A stretch of DNA of 64,000 bases from Chlamydiia bacterium (lineage in GTDB: Bacteria > Chlamydiota > Chlamydiia > Chlamydiales > Rhabdochlamydiaceae), in the NCBI GenBank assembly GCA_963804085.1, contig CAWDOQ010000010.1, positions 96,001 to 160,000 of the forward strand. Reading direction: 5' to 3'. The notes beneath the pieces are model-generated. The model was not told the DNA's origin. It worked only from the letters and a program-made list of their open reading frames with translations, and ran no database searches. A program made the translations under genes and the position numbers. Below are positions 4,459 to 33,573 of this stretch, in pieces (positions within the stretch are counted from its first letter, which is position 1; each line of letters starts with the position of its first letter).

Positions 4459-5511
4459 ATGACATTTTTACGCGCGCTTATCTTTGCATTCTTGCCGGTT
4501 GCATTAGCGCACGCAAAGACAAGCCCGCCTCCAGGTAATGAAATTGAAACCCCTAAAGCTGCTGAAGAAGAGCCCTGGTTTACAGGCTCTCTTCTTTCCA
4601 TTGCACCCGATGTTGTTCCCATTGGCTACATGGACTTGGAGACCTACTTTCAGGTATTCGACTTCTTAGGAGAGTATAATAAGCACTGGCATGCGCAATC
4701 TACGCCGCGCTTACTCACTGTAAGTCCCTTAATCTTTTTTCAAACCGGCTTGTCAGAGAGCATCGAAATTGTGGCTCTGCCGCAATTATTTTACAACCAG
4801 AGCCAAGGACAGTCATTTGTGGGAATAGGCGACCTCCCTATCGGGTTAGGCTTTCAAATTCTCACTCAAAAAGAGGGTTCATGGCGTCCCTCTATCAAGC
4901 TGATTACACAAGAGATATTTCCTTTGGGAAAATACCAGCATCTCAACCCAAAAAAAATGGACACCGATAGCATCGGCCGCGGCTCTTATCAGAGCACACT
5001 CGGCCTAGCTATCGGTAGATTGTTTCACTTAAGCGGCATACACTACTTTGCCCCGCGTTTTAACTTCCTTTACACCTACCCATCTCCGGTGCATGTGAGA
5101 GGATTTAACGCGTATGGAGGCGGTTTTGGGACAAAAGGAAAGGTGCGTCCGGGTAATTCGTTTACAGCTCTTTTTGCAATGGAATGCAACCTCACTAGAA
5201 ACTGGACTTTTGCTCTAGATGTCGATTACATCCATTTCGATAAAACGCGCTTCTCAGGTAAAAAGGGGGTCGATGAATTTGGAGCAGCTGCAAGCGTAAC
5301 CATCCCCTCTTCCGAGCAGTTCAGTCTTGCCCCAGCAATCGAGTACAACTTTAGCGAGAAGTTGGGCATCATCGCCGGAAGCTGGTTCTCAATCGGCGGT
5401 CGCAACGCTGACCAGTTCGTCAGCGGCATCATCGCACTAAACTTCTACACCAATATCCGCCCCGAAAAAACCGCAATCGAACAACCTGCTGGCGGCGCCG
5501 GCGGCCGCTAG
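4459..5511 (+). CDS. Putative outer-membrane beta-barrel protein (paralog 1)
   Basis: Signal peptide (ALAHA), amphipathic beta pattern, APAIEYNF...GIIAGSWF. Clearly similar to 5621..6661. Confidence 0.6.
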   Translation: MTFLRALIFAFLPVALAHAKTSPPPGNEIETPKAAEEEPWFTGSLLSIAPDVVPIGYMDLETYFQVFDFLGEYNKHWHAQSTPRLLTVSPLIFFQTGLSESIEIVALPQLFYNQSQGQSFVGIGDLPIGLGFQILTQKEGSWRPSIKLITQEIFPLGKYQHLNPKKMDTDSIGRGSYQSTLGLAIGRLFHLSGIHYFAPRFNFLYTYPSPVHVRGFNAYGGGFGTKGKVRPGNSFTALFAMECNLTRNWTFALDVDYIHFDKTRFSGKKGVDEFGAAASVTIPSSEQFSLAPAIEYNFSEKLGIIAGSWFSIGGRNADQFVSGIIALNFYTNIRPEKTAIEQPAGGAGGR

Positions 5512-5534
5512 CGCAATCATATATTTTATCCCAT

Positions 5535-5557
5535 ACGTGCCCGTGCCTGTGCCCGTG
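5535..5557. repeat. (GTGCCY)n hexamer intergenic repeat
   Basis: acgtgcccgtgcctgtgcccgtg; same family as 6723, 14796 and 61093. Confidence 0.75.
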
Positions 5558-5620
5558 TAAAGAAAAACAATAGCAACCAGGTTGCTAGTCAAATAAATTG
5601 CTATTGACTAGTGTTGCTTT

Positions 5621-6661
5621 ATGCAAATCTTAAAATCTCTTTCGTTTGCTGCTTTAGTCATTGGCGCATTTTTTCCACTTACTCCTCTTCACTGTCGCAA
5701 GGGGGAATACACTGGAATTTCAGAAATAATAGAAGAGAACAAAGGCCCTTGGTTCACTGGACCGCTTCTCGCTCCTTCCGGTCACGTTGTCCCGGTCGGC
5801 TATATGAACTTGGAGCCCTATGTTTTTGTCTCAGACACTTTTGGCGAGTACAACAAACATTGGCATGCTGAGTCAGAGCCGACAATAATCGGAGTCAACC
5901 CTCTCGTCTTTTTACAAATTGGACTTACAGATTGGATGGATATCCAAATTGCACCACAGCTCATCTACAACCATAGCCAAGGTAGATCTTCTACCCATTT
6001 CGGAGATCTGCCAATAGGATTTGACATCCAACTATTAGAAGATAAGCCGGACAACTGGTATCCTGCCATCAAACTCACATTGCGCGAAAGCTTTCCGACT
6101 GGCAAATACCAGCATCTTAACCCTAACAAACACGGCACTGATGAGAGTGGATCGGGCTCCTACATCACAAACATCGGCCTCGTGATCGCACGCCTTTTTC
6201 ATTTGGGCGGCATCTACTACTTCAACGCTAGATTGAGCAACTTTTACAACATTGCCGCTCCCGTACACATAAAGGGATTCAACGCGTATGGCGGCGGATT
6301 TGGGACAAGTGGAAAGGCGCATCCCGGGCAGTCGCTTAACACGATCATCGGCCTCGAGATTACTTTAGCTCAGCACTGGGCCTTTGCACTAGACATCGCT
6401 AACTTATATAGCGGCAAGACAACCTTTTCGGGAAACAAGGGACGAACAGCTGCCGGCACCCCTGCAATTGTTGGCGATCCATCCTCTGATCAAGTAAGCT
6501 TGGCTCCCGCAATCGAGTACAACTTCAACTCATCCGTAGGGATCATCGCAGGCGCCTGGTTCTCAGTAGCGGGTAAAAACAGCGCCGAGTTTGCAACAGG
6601 CGTCATCGCCATCAACTGGTATACCGGCATCAAGCCCAAAAGCAGCAAATTCCCCCATTGA
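5621..6661 (+). CDS. Putative outer-membrane beta-barrel protein (paralog 2)
   Basis: Shares PWFTG.LL, GEYNKHWHA, GDLPIG, GKYQHLNP, GFNAYGGGFGT, LAPAIEYNF with 4459..5511. Confidence 0.6.
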   Translation: MQILKSLSFAALVIGAFFPLTPLHCRKGEYTGISEIIEENKGPWFTGPLLAPSGHVVPVGYMNLEPYVFVSDTFGEYNKHWHAESEPTIIGVNPLVFLQIGLTDWMDIQIAPQLIYNHSQGRSSTHFGDLPIGFDIQLLEDKPDNWYPAIKLTLRESFPTGKYQHLNPNKHGTDESGSGSYITNIGLVIARLFHLGGIYYFNARLSNFYNIAAPVHIKGFNAYGGGFGTSGKAHPGQSLNTIIGLEITLAQHWAFALDIANLYSGKTTFSGNKGRTAAGTPAIVGDPSSDQVSLAPAIEYNFNSSVGIIAGAWFSVAGKNSAEFATGVIAINWYTGIKPKSSKFPH

Positions 6662-6847: not shown

Positions 6848-7840
6848 TTAAAAATCAAACCTGCCGCCGAAGGTGATCCCTTGTAGAGAGAGTGCCTCGT
6901 TGGCCTCTATGGGCGTCAGTGGCGCAGTGGATGTGAAATGGAAGAACTGGTTTTGAGCAAAGAGATAGTGCTGCTCAAAGCCGAGATGAAAACCGAGATG
7001 GTAGCGGCTCTTGCTTAGCATTCTGTCCCACCCGATCCCCAATGCAAGGTCGATGATCGGTTTTTCACTTGGAAACTTGTTCCAGATATTGAAACGCTTC
7101 TCCTCTTCGAATGAGACCTCCTCCGATTCATGCACGTAATGCTCGCCATACAAGAGGGAGAAGGCAAGCGCAGAGTAGAGACTCCAGCCCCCTTTAATTT
7201 TCCAGTCTAGATCGAGTCCTGCTCGCAGCCCGGGTGCGATGAATTTATTCTTCATGCTGATATAGGATTTTCCTCCAGGGAACAGATCTCCTCCAAAATA
7301 GTTAAGAAGATACTTCTGACGGATGATCCCATATCTTAGGCCGATATGAGGCCTGAGCGTGAGATATCTGCTCACAAAAAAGGATCTGCCTAGCTCGAGG
7401 TCGATAAAGGCAAAGTGGAGGCGCCAATGGCCATCAACGGAGTCTACAAACGGATTGGCTATATTAGGTTGAGGAAGAGTCCATGTGGGTGTGAGCAGCT
7501 TTCCATCATGCGATTGTTTGTGAATATGCGCACGGCTATGCAGATGAGTCAGATTTAAATAACAGTCCCAACCGTCGTGAGGAATCCGCCATCCTATGCC
7601 TATTTTAAAGCCTAGATCAGGGTCCACTTTGGGATTTTTAATCTTGCCTTTAGAAAACCCGCTGTTTCTTTGGATGGCATAGGGGATCCCTGCAATGTCT
7701 GTCCACCAGTAGAGGAGATCGGCCGTTACAAAAAGTCCTATTGCATTTTTTACCTGCGGCTGAGCATTCGGGTTATCGATCTTCTCGAGCGCGTCTATGC
7801 GCTGCTCTAAGTGGCTGACCGTGTTTGGGTTGTCTAGCAT
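6848..7840 (-). CDS. Lpg1974/Legionella-MOMP-like pore-forming outer membrane protein
   Basis: ADLLYW, GFKIGIG...HDGWD, DLELGRSFFVS..LTLRPHIGLR, C-terminal LSLQGITFGGRFDF. Confidence 0.75.
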   Translation of the reverse strand: MLDNPNTVSHLEQRIDALEKIDNPNAQPQVKNAIGLFVTADLLYWWTDIAGIPYAIQRNSGFSKGKIKNPKVDPDLGFKIGIGWRIPHDGWDCYLNLTHLHSRAHIHKQSHDGKLLTPTWTLPQPNIANPFVDSVDGHWRLHFAFIDLELGRSFFVSRYLTLRPHIGLRYGIIRQKYLLNYFGGDLFPGGKSYISMKNKFIAPGLRAGLDLDWKIKGGWSLYSALAFSLLYGEHYVHESEEVSFEEEKRFNIWNKFPSEKPIIDLALGIGWDRMLSKSRYHLGFHLGFEQHYLFAQNQFFHFTSTAPLTPIEANEALSLQGITFGGRFDF

Positions 7841-7917
7841 AGTTTAAAAAAAATTATACTCGATACATTTGTTTCACTCATCTGTTATAATCGCTTCACA
7901 ATTTATTTGGAGAAACT

Positions 7918-9225
7918 ATGTCAACGATAAATTTTTATTGTGGCGGCCTGGCTGCTGAGAGCCTTAAAGATTATGCGAGCGCACAAGCTTATCGATGTGA
8001 GACGCGTTTACTAAGAGGAACGCTTGATACAAATGTAATTAATCCGATTCTTTACCCGACTGACAGAATTCTTGTCATTGACGCCACCGGCAAATGGATC
8101 GTCGACAACGCGATTCAGGTAAAGGGAAGCTCCGATGCCAAACGCCAAGAAATGGTAAATTACTGGGGCGAGAATTACACGATCACTCTAGTGAGCGGTA
8201 TCGTCAGCCTCGTTGTAGGGCTTGGATGCGGCGTAGCTGCCTTTTTTGTTCCTCCCATCTGGTTGAAAGTCGTCTGTACAGTAGTAGCTGTTGTTACTCT
8301 TGTCTTTTCGATTTTAAGTTTTTATCGTTCAAGCGAAGCGAGCGGCGAAATAGAGGCATGGAATGTACATCCTGCTAAAGAGGTCGCAGAAAAAAGACTT
8401 CAGGCCTATCAACAGGGATTGTTCTTTGCAAAACGATGCGCTCTAAAAGAGAAAGAGGTGCTACACCCTGAAGAAATTCAAGTCTTATATCGCGCAAGTT
8501 GTGATGCGATGAATAGATCCATTTTCCAAGCAAACGGACAAAACGATCAAGCCCAAGTGCGCTTTGCCGAGCAGTTTCTCCATGAAAATCCGCTCGATAT
8601 AGAAGCTATAGACTACGCTTTTGGTGAGCATCCGAAGCTCACTGCATACAGCACTCAATTTGCAAGGTATAGAAGTGACATACAAAATATCCAAGGACAT
8701 ACCGAGCAGCAAAGAACGCAAGTGAATAAGGAAAGAGAGCAGCTTCTTCGAGAAGCACACATAAAAGAAACAATACAGCTCAAACCATACAAAGATGCCT
8801 TGCGCGCACGCGAAGAGACCTGCGCTGCGAACAAAAAAGCTGCGCTTGCTGCCCTTTCACTTCAAGACCAAAATAATCCAGATCATCCTGTTGTGGTCCA
8901 AGCAAATAAAGCTTACACTGCTGCAATGGCTGCCGCTCAAAAGCAGTACACGCTAGACACTGTTTTCATCACGAAAAAAGTTAAGCAAGAAAGGGAGAGA
9001 ATCGAAAAGGCGCATAGAGAGGCGATCCAGACATTAGAAACCGCCAAACATCAGAATCTGCTCCCCTTCTTTGAGCGCGCGCGCGACATTTTTGCCGGCG
9101 CCTATGCAATCTTAAAAGGCCAAAATCCTCCCAAACCTCTCTATCATGATCCGCTAGCGAGAATGAGAGAGGCGAGCGCACCGCCCGGCGGCCCTGAATT
9201 ATTAGATATAGATGCAAAAAGTTAA
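7918..9225 (+). CDS. Inc-like protein (bilobed hydrophobic segment plus coiled coil), paralog 1
   Basis: Hydrophobic hairpin ITLVSGIVSLVVGLGCGVAAFFVPPIWLKVVCTVVAVVTLVFSILSFY followed by a helical, charged region. No signal peptide. Confidence 0.6.
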   Translation: MSTINFYCGGLAAESLKDYASAQAYRCETRLLRGTLDTNVINPILYPTDRILVIDATGKWIVDNAIQVKGSSDAKRQEMVNYWGENYTITLVSGIVSLVVGLGCGVAAFFVPPIWLKVVCTVVAVVTLVFSILSFYRSSEASGEIEAWNVHPAKEVAEKRLQAYQQGLFFAKRCALKEKEVLHPEEIQVLYRASCDAMNRSIFQANGQNDQAQVRFAEQFLHENPLDIEAIDYAFGEHPKLTAYSTQFARYRSDIQNIQGHTEQQRTQVNKEREQLLREAHIKETIQLKPYKDALRAREETCAANKKAALAALSLQDQNNPDHPVVVQANKAYTAAMAAAQKQYTLDTVFITKKVKQERERIEKAHREAIQTLETAKHQNLLPFFERARDIFAGAYAILKGQNPPKPLYHDPLARMREASAPPGGPELLDIDAKS

Positions 9226-9246: not shown

Positions 9247-10563
9247 ATGTCCCTTATAGATTTTTACTACAGCGGCTCATCAGCTGATAGCTTACAAGAG
9301 TGGAACTACTTGAAAGGCAAAGGCTATGTGGTGAAAACGCACACAAGTTTGGTGGGCAGTGAACCTAAGGCCGAAGATACTAATCCTCTCCTCCATAAGG
9401 AAAGGCCGCGTGTCCAGGAGATGGACAGCAAAAGAAAAAACAAGTGGCTGGTCGATGGCGCATTCGAGGTGATATCGACGCTTAACCTCGAGGAGCGTGC
9501 TAAAAAAGAGGATTTTTGGAATCAAAACTATTGCATCACTTTGGCAAGCGGCATTGTCGGCACGCTCTTAGGCATTGGATGCGGCGTAGCTACAGTTTTT
9601 GTTAAAGCCGCTTGGCTCAAAGTGACTTGTGTCGTAGCAGCTGTCGCTCTCGTGCTCTTTGCCGTTCTTAGCTTCTATCGCGCATCGGATGCTTCCGATC
9701 AGGCAAATGGTTGGAATATGCATCCTGCTGTAGCTTTGCAAAATCAAAGGATGCTCGCTTTTCAAAATGGCTTCGTGGATACATGGTTAAAATCACGGCA
9801 GAATTATCTGACTAAGAATGAGATGACCTATCTACTACATCAAGCATTTGAAAAGTGGAATACCCAATTAGAAAGTGCAAAAAGCACTCCCAGCAAGCGA
9901 GCAGCTTTTACCGAGGAGTTTCTTGGCTCATCACTTCTTGCAGAGCATCCCATAAAACAGGTTTTAGGAAATAACAAACTCGAGACATTTTGCGTGCAAT
10001 TTCAACAGTGTGGTTATTACGCCAAAGATCATCGTGAAAAGTATTTCTCTTGGCAACTCAAGTCTTTAGATGAGGAGAAAACCAAACTCTTGTCTGTGCA
10101 AGATCAGGAGCGTGAAAAAAGAGATGCATCTATAAATCTGACATTCGCAACAAAAAAGAACGCTTTGGAGCAAGACCGAGACAAAAAACTCAATAAACTA
10201 AAGGAAGCGGAACAAAAAAAATCTGAGCATCCACAGGTAAATCCAATCAAAGAGAGCTTCAATCTTGCCCTTCAAAAAGCAGTAAAAGAGCGCGACGAAG
10301 CACTTGCTGCAAGTCAAAAGGGTTGTTCAACCTCAAAAGGCCAAATAGAAGAGATTGACAAGGGTATAAAAGGAGGGATCGAATTGCGCAAAAAGGCCGG
10401 TTACGATGCTTTTTATCAGCAAGCTCAAGACATATTTGAAGGAGCCTATGCAGTGCTAAAGAATCAAACACCGCCTCCCTATTCTTATAAAGATCCTATA
10501 TGGCTCTTTAAAGAAGCTGTTGCTCTTGCTCAAAATGGACCGAGAGAGAGAAAAACGAGTTAA
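9247..10563 (+). CDS. Inc-like protein, paralog 2
   Basis: Same layout. Shares KW.VD.A, NY.ITL.SGIV, LSFYR.S.AS, WN.HPA, A.DIF.GAYA.LK.Q.PP with 7918..9225. Confidence 0.6.
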   Translation: MSLIDFYYSGSSADSLQEWNYLKGKGYVVKTHTSLVGSEPKAEDTNPLLHKERPRVQEMDSKRKNKWLVDGAFEVISTLNLEERAKKEDFWNQNYCITLASGIVGTLLGIGCGVATVFVKAAWLKVTCVVAAVALVLFAVLSFYRASDASDQANGWNMHPAVALQNQRMLAFQNGFVDTWLKSRQNYLTKNEMTYLLHQAFEKWNTQLESAKSTPSKRAAFTEEFLGSSLLAEHPIKQVLGNNKLETFCVQFQQCGYYAKDHREKYFSWQLKSLDEEKTKLLSVQDQEREKRDASINLTFATKKNALEQDRDKKLNKLKEAEQKKSEHPQVNPIKESFNLALQKAVKERDEALAASQKGCSTSKGQIEEIDKGIKGGIELRKKAGYDAFYQQAQDIFEGAYAVLKNQTPPPYSYKDPIWLFKEAVALAQNGPRERKTS

Positions 10564-10584
10564 TAGACCTCTTTCGAAACAGGT

Positions 10585-11334
10585 CTAATGCAAAAGGGCA
10601 ACGGTTGCATGTCTTCCGGTCACTCTCTGGTCGCGCCGGAAGGAGAAGTAGTCTTCCGGTTGCGAATAGGTGCATAGAGAAGCGATCTCGATGTGAGAGG
10701 TAACCACTCCTGCATCGAGAAGTTGCCTTCTGCTAATCTCCCACAGATTAAAATAGGTGGGCCTCTCTTGAAACTCCCGGAATGATTCGGGCAGCTCTGT
10801 TTTATAGTTTTTAAACTCTGCATGCTGAGGGCCTAAACTGGGGGAGATGCCGACTAAAAGGTTTTCCGGTCTAGACCCTATTTGCTTTTGCATCAGATCC
10901 ACGGTCTCTTTGTAGATGTTCTGCACATTGCCGCGCCAGCCGCAGTGGATATTTGCTAGAGCATGATTCTTGGGGTCGTAAAAGATAGCGGCTTGACAAT
11001 CTGCATGTTTAATCATAAGAGCGCGTCCCTTCTCTTGCGTAAGAAGGCCATCACACTCTCCTGCCTCTTCATCTCCTTTAAGGTGATGAATGGCCTTCCC
11101 ATGGCACTGCTTGCCCGAAACGAGCTCCTCTATACCCAAAATCTGGCAAATCTGCTGGCGATTCTTTTTAATGATCTCTGGATTGTCGCCCGAGCCCCCT
11201 CCGACATTTAAAGAGGAAAAAGGAGCTTGGCTGTGCCCGCCTTGGCGCAAAAAAATAGCATGGACTAGACCGGGAATCTCTTGTAAAAGCTCAAATTCGA
11301 GCCACTCTACTCCATCTCTTTTTTTACGAATCAT
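10585..11334 (-). CDS. pgeF: YfiH/PgeF family (laccase-domain, purine nucleoside phosphorylase-like) protein
   Basis: SLNVG, QCHG, ADCQ, HCGWRG, CT....YFSFRRD motifs. Confidence 0.9.
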   Translation of the reverse strand: MIRKKRDGVEWLEFELLQEIPGLVHAIFLRQGGHSQAPFSSLNVGGGSGDNPEIIKKNRQQICQILGIEELVSGKQCHGKAIHHLKGDEEAGECDGLLTQEKGRALMIKHADCQAAIFYDPKNHALANIHCGWRGNVQNIYKETVDLMQKQIGSRPENLLVGISPSLGPQHAEFKNYKTELPESFREFQERPTYFNLWEISRRQLLDAGVVTSHIEIASLCTYSQPEDYFSFRRDQRVTGRHATVALLH

Positions 11335-16540: not shown

Positions 16541-17926
16541 ATGGGAAAAATGCCTAATATCAAGGCTCTACTGCTCATGGCGGGTAGTGGGGCGCGTTTT
16601 AAAAGTAGCTTACCCAAGCAGTTCCACCGCATTGGCGGTAAGAAGATCTACTTGCATACGCTCGAACGTTTTTTGGCCGTCTCTCTTTTTGACGAGATTC
16701 TGTTGGTCTGCTCTGAGGAGTGGCAAAGAGAAGTGGAGGCCGACATCGCCGCCTATAAAACTGATAAGATACGTGTTGTGTGCGGCGGCAAAACGCGCCA
16801 AGAATCCTCCTACTTGGGTCTTTTGGCTTGTGGAAGTGATACGGATTATGTGGTAATCCACGATGCGGTCCGTCCCTTTGTGAGCGTTCGCATTTTGGAA
16901 GAGAATGTAGAAGCGGTGCTAGCGCACCTTGCAGTTGATACCTGCATCCCTTCGGCAGACACTCTTGTCCACTCTCCTTCAGGAAAAGAGATCGCCTCGA
17001 TCCCCACGCGCAGCCACTACTTGCGCGGACAGACGCCACAGAGCTTTTCCTATCCCCTCATTTTAGGCGCGCATCAAAATGCCCTGCAAAAAAAGATCAC
17101 AGCCTCTGACGACTGCTCTCTGGTCCTGGCCGACAATGCGCCAGTCCACATCATAGAGGGCGAAGAGGAGAACATCAAGATCACGAGCGAGCTGGATCTC
17201 TTTATCGGCGAGCAGCTCTTGCGCTCTTCTGCACACGCCTTTTCGCTCTCACAAAAGCAGGAGCCCGTCTCATTAAAAGGCAAAACGTTTGCAATAACGG
17301 GCGGTACGGGAGAGATCGGCCAGGCCATTGCGGCGCGCTTAAAAGAGGAGGGAGCGACAGCTGTTCTGCTCTCTAGGAGCGCCGAGCCTTTTTCAGTCGA
17401 TCTCACCTCCTTTTCTGAGACAGAGGCAATATTTAATAAACTCTACGCTCTATATGGTCCAATAGACGGTCTCATCAACTGCATCGGCAAACTAAAGCGC
17501 AAATCACTTGGGGATTTGACCTCTCAAGAGATCGAAGAGCTGATCAGCGTCAACTTAACAGGGGTGGTCTTCGCCTGCAAATGCGCCAAGATTAAAGAGG
17601 GAGGAGATCTCATCAATATCGCCTCTTCTGCCTATTCTCGCGGAAGAAAGGATTTTGCCCTCTACTCTGCCGCAAAAGCAGCTGTCGTGAACTTCACTCA
17701 GGCGCTCGCAGAAGAGCGATCCGATCTATGCGTCACGGCTCTTGCACCGCAACGGACAGACACACGCCTGCGAAGAGAGCAGTTCCCACAAGAGGATCCG
17801 AAGGCTCTTTTAACAACTAGTGAAGTCGCAGATGTGATTTTAAAGTTACTAAAAGAAAAGGGCCCCACAGGAGCCCTTATTGAAATTAGGAATTACTTCG
17901 TTTCTAATACCGCAGGATGGCAGTAA
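16541..17926 (+). CDS. Bifunctional IspD/TarI-type cytidylyltransferase plus SDR oxidoreductase
   Basis: LMAGSGARF..PKQF, GGKTRQES, IHDAVRP, QTPQ, NIKIT; then TGGTGEIG and YSAAK. Confidence 0.88.
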   Translation: MGKMPNIKALLLMAGSGARFKSSLPKQFHRIGGKKIYLHTLERFLAVSLFDEILLVCSEEWQREVEADIAAYKTDKIRVVCGGKTRQESSYLGLLACGSDTDYVVIHDAVRPFVSVRILEENVEAVLAHLAVDTCIPSADTLVHSPSGKEIASIPTRSHYLRGQTPQSFSYPLILGAHQNALQKKITASDDCSLVLADNAPVHIIEGEEENIKITSELDLFIGEQLLRSSAHAFSLSQKQEPVSLKGKTFAITGGTGEIGQAIAARLKEEGATAVLLSRSAEPFSVDLTSFSETEAIFNKLYALYGPIDGLINCIGKLKRKSLGDLTSQEIEELISVNLTGVVFACKCAKIKEGGDLINIASSAYSRGRKDFALYSAAKAAVVNFTQALAEERSDLCVTALAPQRTDTRLRREQFPQEDPKALLTTSEVADVILKLLKEKGPTGALIEIRNYFVSNTAGWQ

Positions 17927-24019: not shown

Positions 24020-24625
24020 ATGCCATCTATTTTGAAGCTTTTTGCTAACCCGACGCTTCCTGCCATTCTCAGCTTATTTTTGCTGAATCCGGATGAAGAA
24101 TTATACCAATCGGATATCGCCAAGAGAATTGATAAAGCGTTAATGCAAGTTCAAAGAGCGCTAAAGACTCTCGAAGAGATTGGCCTTGTTACGATCACTC
24201 GCCGGGGCAAAATGGTATATTACAAAGCAAGAAGAGATCACCCTGCTTTTGCCGATCTTAGACACCTCTTTTTGAAGACTATCGTTTTTGAGAACACCAT
24301 CCTCAAAACACTTCATCCTTATCGAGACAAAATCGACTTTGCCTTCATTTTTGGCTCCTATGCAACAGGAGAAGAGTCCTCAAGCAGTGACATCGATCTT
24401 TTCTTGGTTTGTAACATCTCTCTGCGAGAGCTGTCAAAAGTGTTAAGTCCTCTTTCAGAAAAATTACAACGAGAGCTGAACCCGGTAATCATCGGACAAA
24501 AGGAGTTTAAAAAAAGAATTTTAGGAAAAGACCATTTCGTGCTAAAAGTCATTAGCTCTCCAAAAATTTGGATCATCGGCAATGAAAGCAACTTTGAACG
24601 ACTGGTTAAAAGAGGAAAAGCTTAA
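24020..24625 (+). CDS. wHTH plus minimal nucleotidyltransferase (MNT antitoxin-like)
   Basis: N-terminal HTH (YQSDIAKR...QVQRALKTLEEIGLV); FIFGSYATG...SDIDLF; RELNP. Confidence 0.88.
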   Translation: MPSILKLFANPTLPAILSLFLLNPDEELYQSDIAKRIDKALMQVQRALKTLEEIGLVTITRRGKMVYYKARRDHPAFADLRHLFLKTIVFENTILKTLHPYRDKIDFAFIFGSYATGEESSSSDIDLFLVCNISLRELSKVLSPLSEKLQRELNPVIIGQKEFKKRILGKDHFVLKVISSPKIWIIGNESNFERLVKRGKA

Positions 24626-27810: not shown

Positions 27811-28098
27811 TTTTGCCCTCCCTTATGTTAAAACAACTTCGGACTAGAAAGTGTAGCATGCTCATTTTTTTTAGAGATAGAGTCAATTGGCTCGGTAGTA
27901 AAACGGTTGGTCACTTTGAGATGCGGCTCGCGCGAAGCGTTTCAGACATATTCTAGTTTTCTACACCTAACTGAAAACTTGCCTCCGAAAGAAGATGTTA
28001 TGGAAGCTTGAGGGACGAGTTAAAACAGAAAAAACTGGTCAAACTATCCGGAAAGCTCCTAAGCTGATGAAAGCTAATTTCTTTAAATTCTATACTTG

Positions 28099-28791
28099 AT
28101 GTCCAAAAAGCCAGTAAGCAGACTAGAAATACTCTTTCCATCCCGAAAGCGAATATGGGTAACGGGTTTTCCTGAATGTATTCTTAAAGATGATCTATGG
28201 AAACTGTTTCGACCATTTGGTGATATTGATTCAATATCGATCGTACGCAACTGCATGAAGCAGCCAATAGCATTCATTGATATGAAAAATTCTTCGGATG
28301 CTCAGAGAGCAATTCGGGATTTGGACAAGCAGTTTTTCTTAGGTAGGAATATTACCGTACGCGAATCGCAACAAAAATTTTATGAGGAAAGGTTTATTTA
28401 CGCGTTGTTAAGTTTTGATAAACGTGAGTGTTATATTGGGGAGACATGCGATACAATAAAGCGTTTCCGCCAGCATTTAAACGGGAAAGGAGACAAATCG
28501 ACGTCTTCGTGGATTTTAACTTTAAAGGATAGCAAACCAAAGCCAATAATCCTGGAGATCGTACAGCCAGGCTATGATGCTCATTTTCAAGCAAATTTTC
28601 TAGAGACAGTGTGGCGCCTAGTGGCCAGTATATGTTGTTGGGAGGTGATCAATTTTCCTTTCCTTTCGGATATCAGAGAAGAACTTAAAGCAGCAGTCAC
28701 ACCTAGAATTAGTAAATGGTTGCAAATTCTCGACAAGGTATCCGAAATCTCGCTGCTTGAAGAACAATGCACCGCGAGGCGCCCTAACTAA
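28099..28791 (+). CDS. RNA-recognition motif (RRM) plus GIY-YIG nuclease fusion
   Basis: RNP2 IWVTGF, LF.PFG.I, RNP1 IAFIDM, DAQRAI..LD...GR.ITV; then FIYAL...CYIGET..IKRFRQH and a downstream Glu. Confidence 0.75.
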   Translation: MSKKPVSRLEILFPSRKRIWVTGFPECILKDDLWKLFRPFGDIDSISIVRNCMKQPIAFIDMKNSSDAQRAIRDLDKQFFLGRNITVRESQQKFYEERFIYALLSFDKRECYIGETCDTIKRFRQHLNGKGDKSTSSWILTLKDSKPKPIILEIVQPGYDAHFQANFLETVWRLVASICCWEVINFPFLSDIREELKAAVTPRISKWLQILDKVSEISLLEEQCTARRPN

Positions 28792-28802
28792 CTCAGCATT
28801 TG

Positions 28803-29576
28803 CTACGCAACGAGAATATCGCGAGCTTTCTCTCTTTCCGTCCAGAGAATGGGTGTCGATTCATAATTCCGAAGAGCATCTATTGTGGAACTTGAGATAG
28901 TTGTGCTTGTATCATTTAACAAAGCGAATAGCTTCGAGTCCGCAGGACGCGTTTCGCGCGTATCTAACCACTCGAACATCAATAACTCAACGGACTTTTT
29001 ATCTGGTGCATTTAAAACTTGGAGAAGCCTCTCTGGAGAATTGCGTGACTTTGGAATCACAAAATTGAACATATGATCGAACCCACTTTTCCCAGAGAAT
29101 TTGACCATCGGAACATAACGAATGTTCGCTGAATCCAGCCAACTGCCCACATCCTCGATAAAAAGACTTTTAACATTAGGCGTGGCGAGATAGAAAAGAT
29201 CGTTGATGGCCAACATTGCTTGGATCAAGCTGTGCTTTTTCAGCGCAAAATCATGCAAAGATGCATGCACAATGAGTTGATCATCTTCCAGAAGGACTCC
29301 AAACCCACTAATGCAGGTTTTGAGCATACTTTGACGCCTCGGAGTCTTCAGTTCACACCCCGAACTAATCAAATCATTGAGAATATAACCATCATCGGTA
29401 AGCAAAAAACCATCACCCTGTTTCTTTACATATATTTGAAGACAATCATTGTGACGATCAAGATGCGGGGTGGTAATTTGGACCCATTGATTATCAATCT
29501 CTTTGAGAACAGTTTTGTCTTTCAGCCAAACGAAGTAGTTCTGCATAAGGGCGTCGATGTCCCTCTTAATGCTCAT
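28803..29576 (-). CDS. DUF1828/DUF1829-type protein
   Basis: ITTPHLDRHNDCLQIYV, LTDDG, LIQAMLAINDLF, GKSG.DH.FNFVIP. Confidence 0.8.
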   Translation of the reverse strand: MSIKRDIDALMQNYFVWLKDKTVLKEIDNQWVQITTPHLDRHNDCLQIYVKKQGDGFLLTDDGYILNDLISSGCELKTPRRQSMLKTCISGFGVLLEDDQLIVHASLHDFALKKHSLIQAMLAINDLFYLATPNVKSLFIEDVGSWLDSANIRYVPMVKFSGKSGFDHMFNFVIPKSRNSPERLLQVLNAPDKKSVELLMFEWLDTRETRPADSKLFALLNDTSTTISSSTIDALRNYESTPILWTEREKARDILVA

Positions 29577-30006
29577 GTAATCCCTCGATATAAGGTTCTT
29601 CTACGATATTGCAGTATTCAAAAAATTCTTCAAGGGTTTTCCGAATATTCGTCAGGTCAGAAAATTCTTTGGGCAGCTCATAAGCCCACTTATCTCCGTA
29701 ACCCTCTCGATATAGATGGATATGCGGACACAAAATCTCAACTCCATCGGGATTTCGATGAGGGGAACCCCCAAGATCAAGGCGCACCAGTACTGTGTTT
29801 TTTCTTGCTCTTTTTTGAAATGTGTTCTTTCTCATTTCAATGCGACTACGCGAAATATCTAACCCAAAATGTTCATGGGACTCCTTGGACCTAAGCAAAA
29901 CCCGCAAACTGCCTCCCGAAATAGGAAACTGATGCCGCAGATCATCACAACGGTATTTTGCCATCTTTAGCAAAGCGTCAGCTTCACCTTGAGCCATTTC
30001 AGACAT
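29566..30006 (-). CDS. DUF6978-type protein, co-oriented with and overlapping the DUF1828/1829 gene
   Basis: Q.EADALL, LVRLD..G.PHRNPDG...PHIHLYREGYGDKWA, FFEYCNI. Confidence 0.75.
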   Translation of the reverse strand: MSEMAQGEADALLKMAKYRCDDLRHQFPISGGSLRVLLRSKESHEHFGLDISRSRIEMRKNTFQKRARKNTVLVRLDLGGSPHRNPDGVEILCPHIHLYREGYGDKWAYELPKEFSDLTNIRKTLEEFFEYCNIVEEPYIEGLHEH

Positions 30007-30160
30007 GCGAAAGCTATGCCAATTCAATTCTTAAGAAAAGAGAATTCTAAGCTATAGAATGATTGAAAACAAGATGCTCTTATTTCTCACTGTTGACTTG
30101 GAGCTTCGAAAACTAGTCCCTTTCCGCCCGCCATTTTCATCGAACAGGTTAGGAAGATAC

Positions 30161-30204
30161 GACTTGATGGACTCAAACCATCGATCCCCTTATTAAAAGT
30201 GAGG
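30161..30204 (-). repeat. Degenerate copy of the tRNA-Lys 3' portion (att-like site)
   Basis: 41 of 44 nt identical to 33367..33410, same orientation. Confidence 0.9.
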
Positions 30205-30418
30205 GCATTTCTCAACTCAACCAGCTTTATTCAACCCCTATGGGCATCACTATAAAGAATTTGAGTGTGGAATGCTACTGATTTTTCTGGGATAAAGAGG
30301 GTAAAAAATGCGGCACGGTGCACCGTTTATGCACCGTCTTTAAAACATGGTTACTTCTATTGAAGCAGCTAGTTTGAATCACTAAAAACTTAATTGGACA
30401 AATAGTCGTCTTCGCCTT

Positions 30419-32098
30419 TCACCTCTCGGATCTAGCTCCATGCTGAATTAACCAATCCAGCACATAACGAGGACATCTACCGAAATCTTTGGCCCAATCA
30501 AGAATTGTGCCACAATGAGGAGGACGGTTGCCATAATGGATTTTGGCATTGATATCAGCTCCTCGAGATAACAAAAACTCTAAGATCTCAAAGTTCTCAT
30601 CAAGCCTACGTTGATTCTCTACAGCTCCCATAAAAACTGTTGGAGCGCCATCGACTCCATCATGCCATTTACTCCAGGCGTTAACATCCATTTTTTGCTC
30701 ATCGATTAACCATTTCAGTAAATTCAAGTCACGACGAGCAGCACAATGTAATGCATTGCATCCCTGTGGAGTAAATTCATTCAAAGAAGCCCCTCTTTTT
30801 ACAAGTTCTTTTAACACGTCAATGTTGGCGGCGTGATAAGCTCGATGCAAAGGTTTCCAACCCTCATCATCAACTGCATGTAAATCAGCTCCCCTGTCAA
30901 GAAGTTCTAAAGCAATTTTTTTGTCATATATGCCCACATGTAATGGGGTTCTACCATATAAATCTTTCGCATGAACGTCAGCTCCTCCTTTTAGAAGAAT
31001 AGAAAGCGCTTCGCTGTCTTGAGATTGTACCGCATAATGCAATGGTGTTTGTCTTTGAGCTAACTTAATATCAACATCTGCGCCGGAATCGATTAGGAAT
31101 TGAAGAATTTTTGGGTGACAAAATGCTGCGGTGAGAGCACATTCCTTTGGCCTACTCCTAGATTCGCTTTGAGTTATTTCATTTATATTTACTCCGCTCG
31201 CAACCAACAATTTTACCGCATTTAGATCACCGCATTTAACTGCACAAAGAAGCGGGGGAATATTTTCTGGATTGTCGCCATACTTGATAAGGATATCGAT
31301 TAACTCTTGATTCTCGGTTTTTTGAGCATCACTTAGCATTTGAGAAAATGCGATTTTCTTATTCTCTTTTTTATGTGAGACTGTATCGACAGAAAAAGAA
31401 GTATTTAACGAACCGTTTGCTATAGCAGGTGTTCGAGCAACTTTTTCTATCTCCCACTTCAATTGCAATATCTTGACTTGTCCAGTTAATTGGTTGCCGC
31501 GAACCATCGCCATAAGCACATGTCCCGCCCCTTCCATCCATTTTCCGTTTTGGAATTGGTTTATCGAGTGATAAAGTCCAAGGAGAATTTGAATTACAAG
31601 TGAAGCGATTGCAAGTTCTAAACCACCATCCAGAAAAAGAACAAGGTAAAGAGCATTGTTGACAAGGCTCAGACAATGCTCTAGTGACTTTTGATATTCC
31701 CCGACATATAAATTCTGGACGAGGTGTGTAAGTTCGACAATAAGATCATGACCGGTTGTGATTAGCATTCCAAGTGGGTGGGCAAAAATTGTTCCAGCTA
31801 GAGCGATGATAGAGATGATGGTTTGAAGTAGCTCATACCCAATCTCCCCTGAACCACCCTTTTGAATTGCAGAAGTAAGGCAAAAGATCGAATGCACTGT
31901 CCGTACACCGCCCATAGCAAGTGAAAGCGGGAAACTAAGAGGTTTATAAAGACTAACAAAAGGTAGAGCGACCGTTCCAACTCTTTTGCATCCATCAAAC
32001 CACGAATGATCGTTTGAAGGTTCCCCTATATCATGTACATACTCACGGTGGTAGTAGGCAGGTTCGGAAACATTGAATAGATTTGTTTGAACTGACAT
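30419..32098 (-). CDS. Ankyrin repeat protein with N-terminal hydrophobic domain
   Basis: PPLLCAV, TPLHYAV, GRTPLH, KPLHRA, NALHCAA, GADIN repeats; several TM-like segments in the first ~200 aa. Confidence 0.85.
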   Translation of the reverse strand: MSVQTNLFNVSEPAYYHREYVHDIGEPSNDHSWFDGCKRVGTVALPFVSLYKPLSFPLSLAMGGVRTVHSIFCLTSAIQKGGSGEIGYELLQTIISIIALAGTIFAHPLGMLITTGHDLIVELTHLVQNLYVGEYQKSLEHCLSLVNNALYLVLFLDGGLELAIASLVIQILLGLYHSINQFQNGKWMEGAGHVLMAMVRGNQLTGQVKILQLKWEIEKVARTPAIANGSLNTSFSVDTVSHKKENKKIAFSQMLSDAQKTENQELIDILIKYGDNPENIPPLLCAVKCGDLNAVKLLVASGVNINEITQSESRSRPKECALTAAFCHPKILQFLIDSGADVDIKLAQRQTPLHYAVQSQDSEALSILLKGGADVHAKDLYGRTPLHVGIYDKKIALELLDRGADLHAVDDEGWKPLHRAYHAANIDVLKELVKRGASLNEFTPQGCNALHCAARRDLNLLKWLIDEQKMDVNAWSKWHDGVDGAPTVFMGAVENQRRLDENFEILEFLLSRGADINAKIHYGNRPPHCGTILDWAKDFGRCPRYVLDWLIQHGARSER

Positions 32099-32204: not shown

Positions 32205-33021
32205 TTAAGAAAAATAGGCATTTAAGTCAAATGCTCTTCCGCTTACAGAGTCTAAGTGCGCTAAAAGATAAGCAATGTATACCTTGAGAAGCCTTACCTG
32301 TCCTTCTTCGTTTTTCTCTGAAAATTCTTTAAATTCAATTTTGTCTTTAGAAGAACGTGTCGAAAAAACCCACAAGGAATCATCCTCAGTATTTTTTGGA
32401 GCTCTTAAATATCCTTGAAAACTGAAAACAGTATCTACAAACCAAGGAAGTTTGGTGCAATTATTAGGCTCTTCGTGGAGCAGCCCGATGATTCCGATTA
32501 GCGGATTTGAAAATTTTCCACCATCAATAGTTATATTATTTTTGGATTCTAACCGCATGCCGCCCGGCAAATATTTACCAGTGTTATCCTTAAGTACTGG
32601 AACTTCATAAAAAATTTTCTCCAAATGATCTGCAGCAGCTGTTAATGAAGCTGTTCGTAAAGTTCTCTTAACTTCGAAAATAGCCACCACTGCTTCAACA
32701 GGTACGATTTCTAAATTGTCAAGATAATCAAAGCGTTTTAAAGAATGCGAAACCAACTTGTCAGTGATAATAATATCTATTTGCGGCGATAGTTTTTTGT
32801 TTTTTGAAGAATAAATATATCCATGAGTGATTTGGAATCTCTCCCCAACAACTTCTCTTAAAAATTTACGAATTGCTAACTCAACTAATCCACCACAATC
32901 ATCTGGATTCTTCATCGATTGTTTTGCAAAACCAGATCGCTGAAAAAATTTGAGACTCATCCAGAAAAAGCTTATAGACAGAATCGATAATGGAGGATGT
33001 TTGTTTAACGTCTATGGTCAT
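32205..33021 (-). pseudogene. DUF6602-type (PD-(D/E)XK-like) protein, probably frameshifted near its N-terminus
   Basis: G..VE..IR.FL, SPQIDIII.D, PVEAV.A.FEVK.TL. An upstream frame MTIDVKQ...ESQIF from ATG 33021 joins the main frame if one T is removed from the T6 run near 32945. Confidence 0.6.
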
Positions 33022-33363
33022 AGAAACCTGAATTTTTTGTAAATATGGTAAGGCTTATTCCCAGTCGGACTTCCTATTCCGACGTTTCGACCTGTTCAGG
33101 CGCAAGCTTGCAGAGCAATAGCTACTGCCCTCGCTCAATCCTATATCGGGCTTGGAAAAATCTAACGGACCTCGAAGAACATTTAAAGCTTATCGGGTAA
33201 CAAGTCCGGTTAGGTCGCAAGCTCCCGGTTCGCTACTCGCTCACCTGCTCCGCACTGCGAAGGCCCACTTGGCCTTCTTCGTGTATCCGCAGCCCTCACT
33301 TCGAGTCGCATACGCATGCCCACTGGGCATGCTCAAGTCATAATTTTTTTCTGCGAAAAAATT

Positions 33364-33436
33364 TGAGACTTGATGGACTCGAACCATCGACCCCCTCATT
33401 AAAAGTGAGGTGCTCTACCAACTGAGCTAAAGTCTC
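33364..33436 (-). tRNA. tRNA-Lys(TTT)
   Basis: GAGACTTTAGCTCAGTTGGTAGAGCACCTCA-CTTTTAA-TGAGG...GGTTCGAGTCC..AAGTCTCA. Confidence 0.95.
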
Positions 33437-33444
33437 AAAAACAT

Positions 33445-33519
33445 TGACCCCAAGGGGATTCGAACCCCTGTTATCAGAATGAAAATCTGGTGTCCTAGGC
33501 CAGCCTAGACGATGGGGCC
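33445..33519 (-). tRNA. tRNA-Glu(TTC)
   Basis: GGCCCCATCGTCTAG...CCAGA-TTTTCAT-TCTGA...GGTTCGAATCCCCTTGGGGTCA. Confidence 0.95.
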
Positions 33520-33573
33520 AAAAGTGGCTATAATCTACCCTATCTACACGCTTTCTTGCAAGCCAAAGTAGAG

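Follow-up and report, generated by a model that had tools for sequence, protein, structure and literature searches.

What would a bacterium do with a nuclease that carries a classical RNA recognition motif (RRM) in front of its catalytic domain? The question is raised by a gene at positions 28099..28791 of the window, the 64,000-nucleotide stretch of DNA analyzed here (contig CAWDOQ010000010.1, positions 96,001 to 160,000), which comes from a Rhabdochlamydiaceae genome, G000. Among the RNA-binding domains of eukaryotes, classical RRMs are the commonest; from bacteria they are known almost exclusively as small binders that stand alone. The specificity of GIY-YIG nucleases usually comes from an attached domain, as in homing enzymes, UvrC, Slx1-Slx4 and CMoRE. 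The gene joins both kinds of domain in one chain, and the reading that we favor, at a little under even odds, is that its product is an accessory single-chain nuclease which moves horizontally and belongs to a conflict system, be it defence against phages or mobile elements or abortive infection. The gene and its parts are as follows.

28099..28791, plus strand: RRM-GIY-YIG gene, one ATG-started open reading frame (ORF) of 230 amino acids (aa) plus stop
28147..28368, plus strand: RRM domain, residues 17-90, from Pfam RRM_1, the AlphaFold2 (AF2) model, VIA and Foldseek
28153-28170, plus strand: RNP2, I19-F24 (I-W-V-T-G-F), within the RRM
28261-28284, plus strand: RNP1, Q55-M62 (Q-P-I-A-F-I-D-M), within the RRM
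28369..28389, plus strand: short linker, residues 91-97, from alignment A2, with a predicted local distance difference test score (pLDDT) of 89-94 over residues 81-100 in the full model
28390..28668, plus strand: GIY-YIG nuclease domain, residues 98-190, from Pfam, invariant residues, and profile and fold matches
28678..28776, plus strand: C-terminal long helix, residues 194-226, an AF2 helix conserved in alignments A1, A2 and A4

The original prediction, made from the sequence, had described one 230-aa ORF joining an RRM to a GIY-YIG domain, and the ORF list and the sequence agree on this. A TTG is found one codon 5' of the ATG, at 28096; the N-terminal 'MSKK' is common to the window protein, the homologue P0003 and the homologue at 10001-10660 of a second locus, L009. 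With a 10-row alignment as input, AF2 returned a whole-protein model with a mean pLDDT of 86.9 and a predicted template modelling score of 0.71, which consists of an RRM (17-89), a short linker placed with confidence, a domain of beta-beta-alpha-alpha-beta-alpha topology (98-178) and a long helix (194-226), with residues 1-13 disordered (pLDDT < 50). E89 and S90, directly before the linker, are invariant in alignment A2.

The fusion is real and recurs beyond the window: in independent metagenome assemblies, proteins with 45-71% identity retain the RRM as well as the nuclease domain. Small parts of the gene occur in three DNA runs of soil metagenomes, which belong to two studies, and no RNA run was among those listed. 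The junction between the domains is covered by one 151-nt contig piece (28347-28497), which extends only some 29 nt past it on one side. Contig pieces of X1, an independent soil run, match the frame of the window at the point where a variant, P0002, is frameshifted; their cover is thin and none spans the gene. P0002 itself, from a 5.5-kb metagenome contig, is 100% identical over 78% of the query and starts with 'MGFPEC'; its C-terminus diverges after 'AAVTP', which fits a frameshift, and the X1 pieces carry no indel there. Upstream of the gene, the leader (27811-28110) showed neither an Rfam family nor an unusual fold (z -0.14), and promoter and terminator scans stayed at chance level. The gene is preceded by no structured leader and by no conserved small ORF, as the small ORFs 5' of it are not conserved in L009.

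Both domains exceed their Pfam cut-offs and match solved folds. For the RRM, Pfam RRM_1 (PF00076) matched residues 19-85 with 51.8 bits against a gathering cut-off of 20.7 (E 7.6e-14, profile positions 1-69 of 70), and the 4/4 fused homologues scanned scored 41.5-48.9 bits. The modelled elements follow the order beta-alpha-beta-beta-alpha-beta (E17-22, H30-40, E43-49, E57-62, H65-75 and E86-89) with a pLDDT of 85-97. The best solved RRM was 5d78_A by VIA (Z 14.7, root-mean-square deviation (rmsd) 2.0, 79 residues aligned), and Foldseek matched the Fox1 RRM with an E of 4.2e-7 and a TM-score of 0.86-0.89. All of the RRM motifs named in the original prediction were located, with IWVTGF at residues 19-24, IAFIDM at 57-62 and DAQRAI..LD...GRNITV at 67-87. 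In the RRM consensus, aromatic residues on the sheet face occupy RNP2 position 2 and RNP1 positions 3 and 5; W20 (RNP2 position 2) and F59 (RNP1 position 5) are conserved wherever a homologue extends over these positions, and RNP1 position 3 is an Ile.

With regard to the origin of this domain, solved eukaryotic RRMs matched at about 32-33 bits and the stand-alone RRM genes of related chlamydiae at up to 38.9 bits (24-33% identity), so that the window RRM is no closer to eukaryotic than to bacterial RRMs. NCBIfam NF058537 (Rbp_regulator) reached 39.7 bits over residues 19-93, against a cut-off of 100. Among the matches are the RRM 2qfj, bound to single-stranded DNA (ssDNA), and the 'Ss-DNA binding protein 12RNP2' 2ki2. 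Stand-alone RRM genes are present in 27/36 other genomes of the family; G000, which is 91% complete, has none, and the fused gene is its sole RRM_1.

The GIY-YIG domain scored closer to its threshold. Pfam GIY-YIG (PF01541) matched residues 99-155 with 26.3 bits (E 9.1e-6, profile positions 3-55 of 78), modestly over the cut-off of 22.6, and a six-frame scan of the whole genome gave the same domain 28 bits; of five homologues, three were over the cut-off (37.3, 33.6 and 25.2 bits) and two under it (19.8 and 19.7 bits). The motifs given by the original prediction were all found (FIY, 99-101; YIG, 112-114; KRFRQH, 121-126; FLETVW, 167-172). When the seven longest family members were aligned, Y101, Y112, G114, R122, H126, E169, W172, N185 and P187 were invariant in 7/7. 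Of the two arginines in KRFRQH, where the catalytic one had been placed, R122 fits that role by its invariance, and R124 is not invariant; E169, the candidate Glu in FLETVW, is invariant and in the alignment falls on the Glu in 'FEHAW' of SLX1. The predicted catalytic residue set (Tyr-Tyr-Arg-His-Glu-Asn) is thus intact. UvrC and an 87-aa YhbQ-like GIY-YIG protein of G000 can be aligned at the Y, Y, G and R as well.

Structural comparison pointed to the same fold. The elements of the full model (E98-105, E110-116, H119-127, H133-141, E148-155 and H161-178) have a pLDDT of about 88-96; modelled alone, the domain was of low confidence (pLDDT 66) with unchanged topology. With this low-confidence model as query, only 5/48,161 chains came out at Z >= 5, all GIY-YIG or GIY-YIG-like: I-TevI (Z 7.9, rmsd 3.0, 84 aligned), PD-T4-3/CMoRE (Z 7.7, rmsd 2.9, 82 aligned), a plant Grx N-domain (6.2), T4 EndoII (5.8) and UvrC (5.5). 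The ten best Foldseek matches in the Protein Data Bank (PDB) were likewise all GIY-YIG, with weak E values of 0.16-0.63 and none <= 0.001, and against viral protein models the full model found GIY-YIG nucleases at E 2e-4 to 1e-2. The domain profile A4 compared with the PDB gave an SLX1 homologue (7wme, E 9.6e-4), yeast SLX1 (7cq2, E 0.008) and UPF0213 (1zg2, E 0.26). The C-terminal helix, in which A199, R203 and W207 are nearly invariant, had no specific fold match among the 48,161 chains, generic long helices only.

The placement of this domain within the GIY-YIG superfamily is less clear-cut. According to the survey by Dunin-Horkawicz et al. (2006, PMC1564403), an Asn after the catalytic Glu is a mark of the UvrC/homing-endonuclease lineage that Slx1 lacks. 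The invariant N185 sits 16 residues past E169. Because the profile matches are SLX1-like but an Asn follows the Glu at this distance, the domain is best described as a predicted complete GIY-YIG core that fits neither the Slx1 nor the UvrC/homing subgroup cleanly.

With SLX1 and UPF0213, its best solved relatives by profile, the window protein shares the motifs 'YIG.T.....R...H.NG' and 'FE..W', and the 87-aa UPF0213/YhbQ-like protein of G000 aligns over the YIG-Arg-His stretch. However, it matched no RING or zinc-finger family in Pfam, has no Slx4-type partner, carries the invariant N185 and adds an RRM and a C-terminal helix, and would therefore not qualify as an orthodox Slx1 (no RING finger, Asn present). 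With I-TevI, the best fold match, it has in common the spacing Tyr-11-Tyr-10-Arg-4-His...Glu-16-Asn, which we take to follow closely that of Y6, Y17, R27, H31, E75 and N90 in I-TevI. In contrast to I-TevI, its GIY-YIG domain is C-terminal, it has no linker plus duplex-DNA-binding module, and it lies in neither an intron nor a phage context; by these features it would not be classed as an I-TevI-type homing endonuclease. The stand-alone bacterial RRM proteins (NF058537 Rbp_regulator; the cyanobacterial and Bacteroides Rbp type) share the RRM_1 domain but have neither a catalytic domain nor a GIY-YIG neighbour, and the window RRM falls far under the Rbp_regulator cut-off.

A parallel in architecture is CMoRE/PD-T4-3 of E. 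coli (PDB 9u75), a single-component defence protein made of a GIY-YIG nuclease and a sensor domain (PMC12923530). Like the window protein, it combines a GIY-YIG domain with a separate sensing domain in one polypeptide, is encoded by an accessory gene, and it was the second-best fold match (Z 7.7). The two differ in that the nuclease of CMoRE is N-terminal and its sensor reads 5-hydroxymethylcytosine and its glucosylated form (5hmC/5ghmC) in duplex DNA, whereas the sensor of the window protein would be an N-terminal classical RRM; moreover, the window protein matched no PD-T4-3 model in the PADLOC scan. By analogy, CMoRE offers a precedent for a single-component defence nuclease of the GIY-YIG-plus-sensor type.

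To date, the family is very small. A search of 5.8 billion protein clusters returned the window protein and five others (52-71% identity, one of them a 100%-identical variant), all of which carry the RRM and most of which have GIY-YIG in precomputed Pfam; about 10 family sequences were found in these clusters altogether. An exhaustive search of 1.84 billion representatives yielded 817 proteins at E <= 0.001, only 4 of them at E <= 1e-30, and outside the family all hits were RRM-only. In line with this, of the 150 best hits with the whole protein, 144 fall outside the family, and not one of these matched GIY-YIG profiles (best E 0.38). A profile search with the nuclease domain added one further sequence, P0156. 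Both P0156 and P0008 begin inside the RRM, which may come from truncation or gene calling, and P0020 (128 aa) consists of the nuclease domain and the C-terminal helix without an RRM. Longer fused forms of the nuclease domain were absent at E <= 0.001 among 7,999 scored candidates, which is weak evidence. An origin of the fusion from adjacent RRM and GIY-YIG genes, of the 'Rosetta-stone' kind, found no support: in seven relatives, the 1.5 kb around each stand-alone RRM gene contained no GIY-YIG ORF (best E 0.48).

Both halves of the protein are similarly conserved (RRM, 49-74%; GIY-YIG, 52-76%). Over 218 codons, comparison with the L009 homologue (68-70% identity) gave a ratio of nonsynonymous to synonymous substitution rates (dN/dS) of about 0.17 (pN 0.168, pS 0.575), with dS near saturation, which indicates that the gene is under purifying selection.

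Occurrence was monitored in sampled genomes with the nuclease domain as query. Matches were found in 2/129 genomes of the same family, which belong to different genera, the L009 homologue being in the family of the window genome and in another genus. In the order sample the count was 1/401, and in the phylum sample 2/401, where the second match is at chance level (E 0.009, 16 bits) and only G000 is real. Each genome has one copy. Since matches are few in the family, phylum and order samples and lacking in phage and plasmid collections, the gene is accessory, rare and patchily distributed. A housekeeping role is ruled out by this distribution.

The genomic context was read at two loci, the window and L009. 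In the window the gene lies within the segment from 24.0 to 33.4 kb, with a guanine-plus-cytosine (GC) content of 0.35-0.43 (0.41), flanked by DNA of 0.48-0.51, which holds the following features.

24020..24625, plus strand: helix-turn-helix plus Pol-beta-type nucleotidyltransferase, PDC-M05A-like (Pfam Polbeta, 43 bits; PADLOC, E 5e-53)
28803-29576, minus strand: PDC-M24B, DUF1828+DUF1829 (Pfam; PADLOC, E 1.3e-105)
29566-30027, minus strand: PDC-M24A, DUF6978 (Pfam; PADLOC, E 6.8e-55)
30161..30217, no strand assigned: partial tRNA-Lys copy of 57 nt (direct repeat D1), 84% identical to 33367-33423
30419-32098, minus strand: ankyrin-repeat protein of 559 aa, with five or more repeats in its C-terminal half
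32205..32960, minus strand: DUF6602 protein, a PD-DExK / NucC-like nuclease (Pfam, 69.7 bits; PADLOC PD_DExK, E 7e-20, and NucC, E 1e-11)
33363-33437, minus strand: tRNA-Lys(ttt), from ARAGORN, at the right border of the low-GC segment
33444-33520, minus strand: tRNA-Glu(ttc), from ARAGORN, at the right border of the low-GC segment

The proposal of a tRNA-linked island was borne out, as the low-GC segment adjoins the tRNA-Lys/tRNA-Glu pair (33363..33520, with Rfam tRNA scores of 75.6 and 52.8 bits) and holds a partial copy of tRNA-Lys. This copy indicates successive insertions at the tRNA and resembles the att-type scar that a nested insertion would leave. In the ORFs scanned from 16.5 to 35.7 kb, no integrase family was detected. 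Between the partial and the intact tRNA-Lys, which are 3.2 kb apart, lie the genes for the ankyrin-repeat protein and the DUF6602 nuclease. An exact 16-nt direct repeat, D11, occurs at 32942-32957 (the start of the DUF6602 gene) and at 33355-33370, where it overlaps the 3' end of tRNA-Lys, and may be a second integration scar.

The nuclease-like neighbours claimed for this island are also present, together with candidate defence genes (PDC-M24A/B, PDC-M05A and the NucC-like gene). The PDC-M24A/B pair lies 11 bp downstream of the window gene, in convergent orientation. The two genes overlap and make up a complete candidate two-gene defence system, and they also match PHROG families of unknown function. 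DUF1829 has recently been implicated in defence, within a different architecture (PMC13092281). By the GC profile, the PDC-M05A-like gene marks the left end of the segment; it has no same-strand partner gene and may be the orphan half of an MNT/HEPN-type pair. The N-terminal half of the ankyrin-repeat protein is hydrophobic by eye, and the protein resembles chlamydial effector or membrane proteins.

At L009, a PDC-S13/Bro-N gene (E 1.2e-115) ends 33 bp upstream of the homologue on the same strand, and an ABC-F ATPase follows the homologue. Within 4 kb upstream are AbiEi (3e-63), AbiEii (6e-78) and a phage-type RNA ligase, and within 4 kb downstream, on the opposite strand, are the repair genes Tag and Ada. 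The RNA ligase (7835-8872, minus strand; RNA_ligase plus PHA02142 OB domain) is within 2 kb of the homologue. A weak metallophosphoesterase match (5193-5732, plus strand; E 7e-4, under the Pfam cut-off) lies beside AbiEi/AbiEii, and with the ligase it could form an RNA-repair module in this accessory region. No partner gene is common to the two loci. A further link to defence came from the metagenomic homologue P0007 (352 aa), in which residues 12-148 match AbiEi (PADLOC, E 1.1e-13, profile positions 48-189 of 192); its RRM-GIY-YIG part follows directly after this AbiEi-like region, which has no N-terminal winged helix. Judged by their gene content, both loci are accessory regions with defence-type genes.

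The rarity of the gene, its location in an acquired island, the defence-type neighbours at both loci and the AbiEi-like fusion make a role in a conflict system the best reading. In the mechanism that we propose, the N-terminal RRM would bind single-stranded nucleic acid (RNA or ssDNA) on its beta-sheet face, and the seven-residue linker would hold it against the GIY-YIG domain with its complete catalytic set. Characterized GIY-YIG enzymes are known to cut DNA. Because of this, and because RRMs can bind ssDNA or RNA, we favor a cut in DNA, made where the single strand is bound or close to it; possible substrates would be a junction of single- and double-stranded DNA, a flap, an R-loop, a replication intermediate or an ssDNA genome. 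The C-terminal helix, which is also present in the stand-alone nuclease-domain homologue P0020, may mediate oligomerisation or autoinhibition. We infer from sequence and models that the RRM binds nucleic acid and which ligands it would take, that the nuclease acts on DNA and that the protein serves in defence, and the RNA gating and anti-phage activity put forward in the original prediction are presumptive in the same way. A narrower version is possible, albeit doubtful: a single-protein restriction factor whose RRM would sense phage ssDNA genomes or replication intermediates (Microviridae), or else transcripts or R-loops, and whose GIY-YIG domain would cut there. If this holds, the protein would be a compact nuclease guided to single strands. 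The known phages of chlamydiae are ssDNA Microviridae.

Several observations weigh against a conflict-system role. With regard to the RRM, RNP1 position 3 is I57, which is not aromatic. An unregulated nuclease for which no immunity partner is visible would have to be kept in check in some way, and no such control was identified. A direct link to mobile elements is missing, as neither the C-domain nor P0020 had a tblastn match in the phage and plasmid collections; in viral contigs, alignment A2 gave only a 27-residue match to the generic GIY-YIG motif, and P0020 no locus. The protein has no match in PHROGs and no convincing model match in PADLOC-DB 2.0, where the best was PDC-S14 (E 0.0014, 15.7 bits, residues 100-131; E 2e-4 for P0007). 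Enrichment in defence genes, which the original prediction had named as a check, is visible as defence-type neighbours in both loci and one AbiEi-like fusion, but two contexts are anecdotal; moreover, the neighbours differ between the two and are mostly candidate 'PDC' genes. The AbiEi-like fusion of P0007, known from a protein sequence alone, may be a gene-calling artefact. Lastly, the low-GC segment also contains the effector-like ankyrin-repeat protein and three orphan ORFs without a family.

This last point leads to an explanation that is absent from the original prediction and that we regard as unlikely, yet as a serious rival because the organism is a chlamydia: a secreted, host-directed effector, whose RRM would target RNA or RNA-associated DNA of a eukaryotic host (e.g., an amoeba) and whose nuclease would damage or remodel it. 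The best RRM matches outside the family, which are long multi-RRM proteins and the solved eukaryotic RRMs of RBM45, PES4, PABP, Sxl and HuR, would fit such a protein, as would the disordered residues 1-13, the ankyrin-repeat protein and the three ORFs without a family in the same segment, and the status of the gene as the only RRM_1 in the genome. However, the RRM need not be of host origin, because the stand-alone bacterial-type RRMs score as well as the eukaryotic ones. The immediate neighbours at both loci are defence or toxin-antitoxin-type genes rather than effectors, P0007 is joined to an AbiEi-like region, and the nuclease domain also occurs alone in P0020, a differently composed sequence. 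We consider it quite improbable that the gene is instead a selfish free-standing homing-type endonuclease or the cargo of a mobile element, with the RRM replacing the usual DNA-binding module. The I-TevI catalytic domain is the top fold match by Z and also heads the Foldseek matches, P0007 has a weak match to NCBIfam grpIintron_endo (E 3e-4, 20.9 bits against a cut-off of 56), and both the Asn 16 residues past the Glu, shared with the UvrC/homing-endonuclease lineage (PMC1564403), and the patchy distribution with differing neighbours at the two loci would fit such an element. This is countered by the reversed domain order relative to I-TevI-type enzymes, the lack of a NUMOD, IENR1 or helix-turn-helix module in Pfam, a position outside any intron, intein or other gene, a single copy per genome, the absence from phage and plasmid collections together with the motif-only match in viral contigs, and nearest solved relatives by profile that are of the SLX1 type and not homing enzymes; moreover, an RRM that binds single strands is unsuited to a duplex homing site.

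The SLX1-type relatives, together with UPF0213/YhbQ-like BH0048, would accord with an accessory maintenance enzyme, a Slx1/YhbQ-like structure-specific nuclease that its RRM would bring to R-loops, to flaps or to stalled transcription-replication intermediates in the genome of the cell itself. Tag/Ada and the RNA ligase close to the L009 homologue, and the lack of a visible partner or immunity gene, point in the same direction. Nevertheless, with the gene in 2/129 family genomes and in no others of the order and phylum samples, a core function is impossible; the gene is part of an acquired segment of low GC, UvrC and the 87-aa YhbQ-like GIY-YIG protein are already encoded in the genome, and the stand-alone RRMs of seven relatives have no GIY-YIG neighbour within 1.5 kb, and we therefore regard this role as decidedly unlikely.

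As for novelty, the original prediction knew of no characterized RRM-GIY-YIG fusion; the full-text literature searched, which leaves most subscription journals outside its scope, likewise contained no description of one. In the GIY-YIG survey PMC1564403, RRM has 0 occurrences. With an RRM beside its GIY-YIG domain, the nuclease would be expected to target single-stranded RNA or DNA, or a junction that adjoins such a strand. We know of no conflict system with a nuclease for which an RRM is the established sensing module. Should the conflict-system role be true, RRMs would be added to the sensor modules known from prokaryotic immunity, with a new sensor from the chlamydiae, a phylum in which defence has been little studied, and the 230-aa protein would offer a scaffold for cleavage directed at single strands. 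Should the protein instead be an effector, it would represent a new way in which an intracellular bacterium attacks the nucleic acids of its host. The tiny size of the family limits the generality of either result alike.

Elsewhere in the window, at 16541-17926 on the plus strand, a 461-aa fusion of an IspD-type cytidylyltransferase and a short-chain dehydrogenase was observed, which resembles the ribitol-phosphate TarI/TarJ-type fusions.

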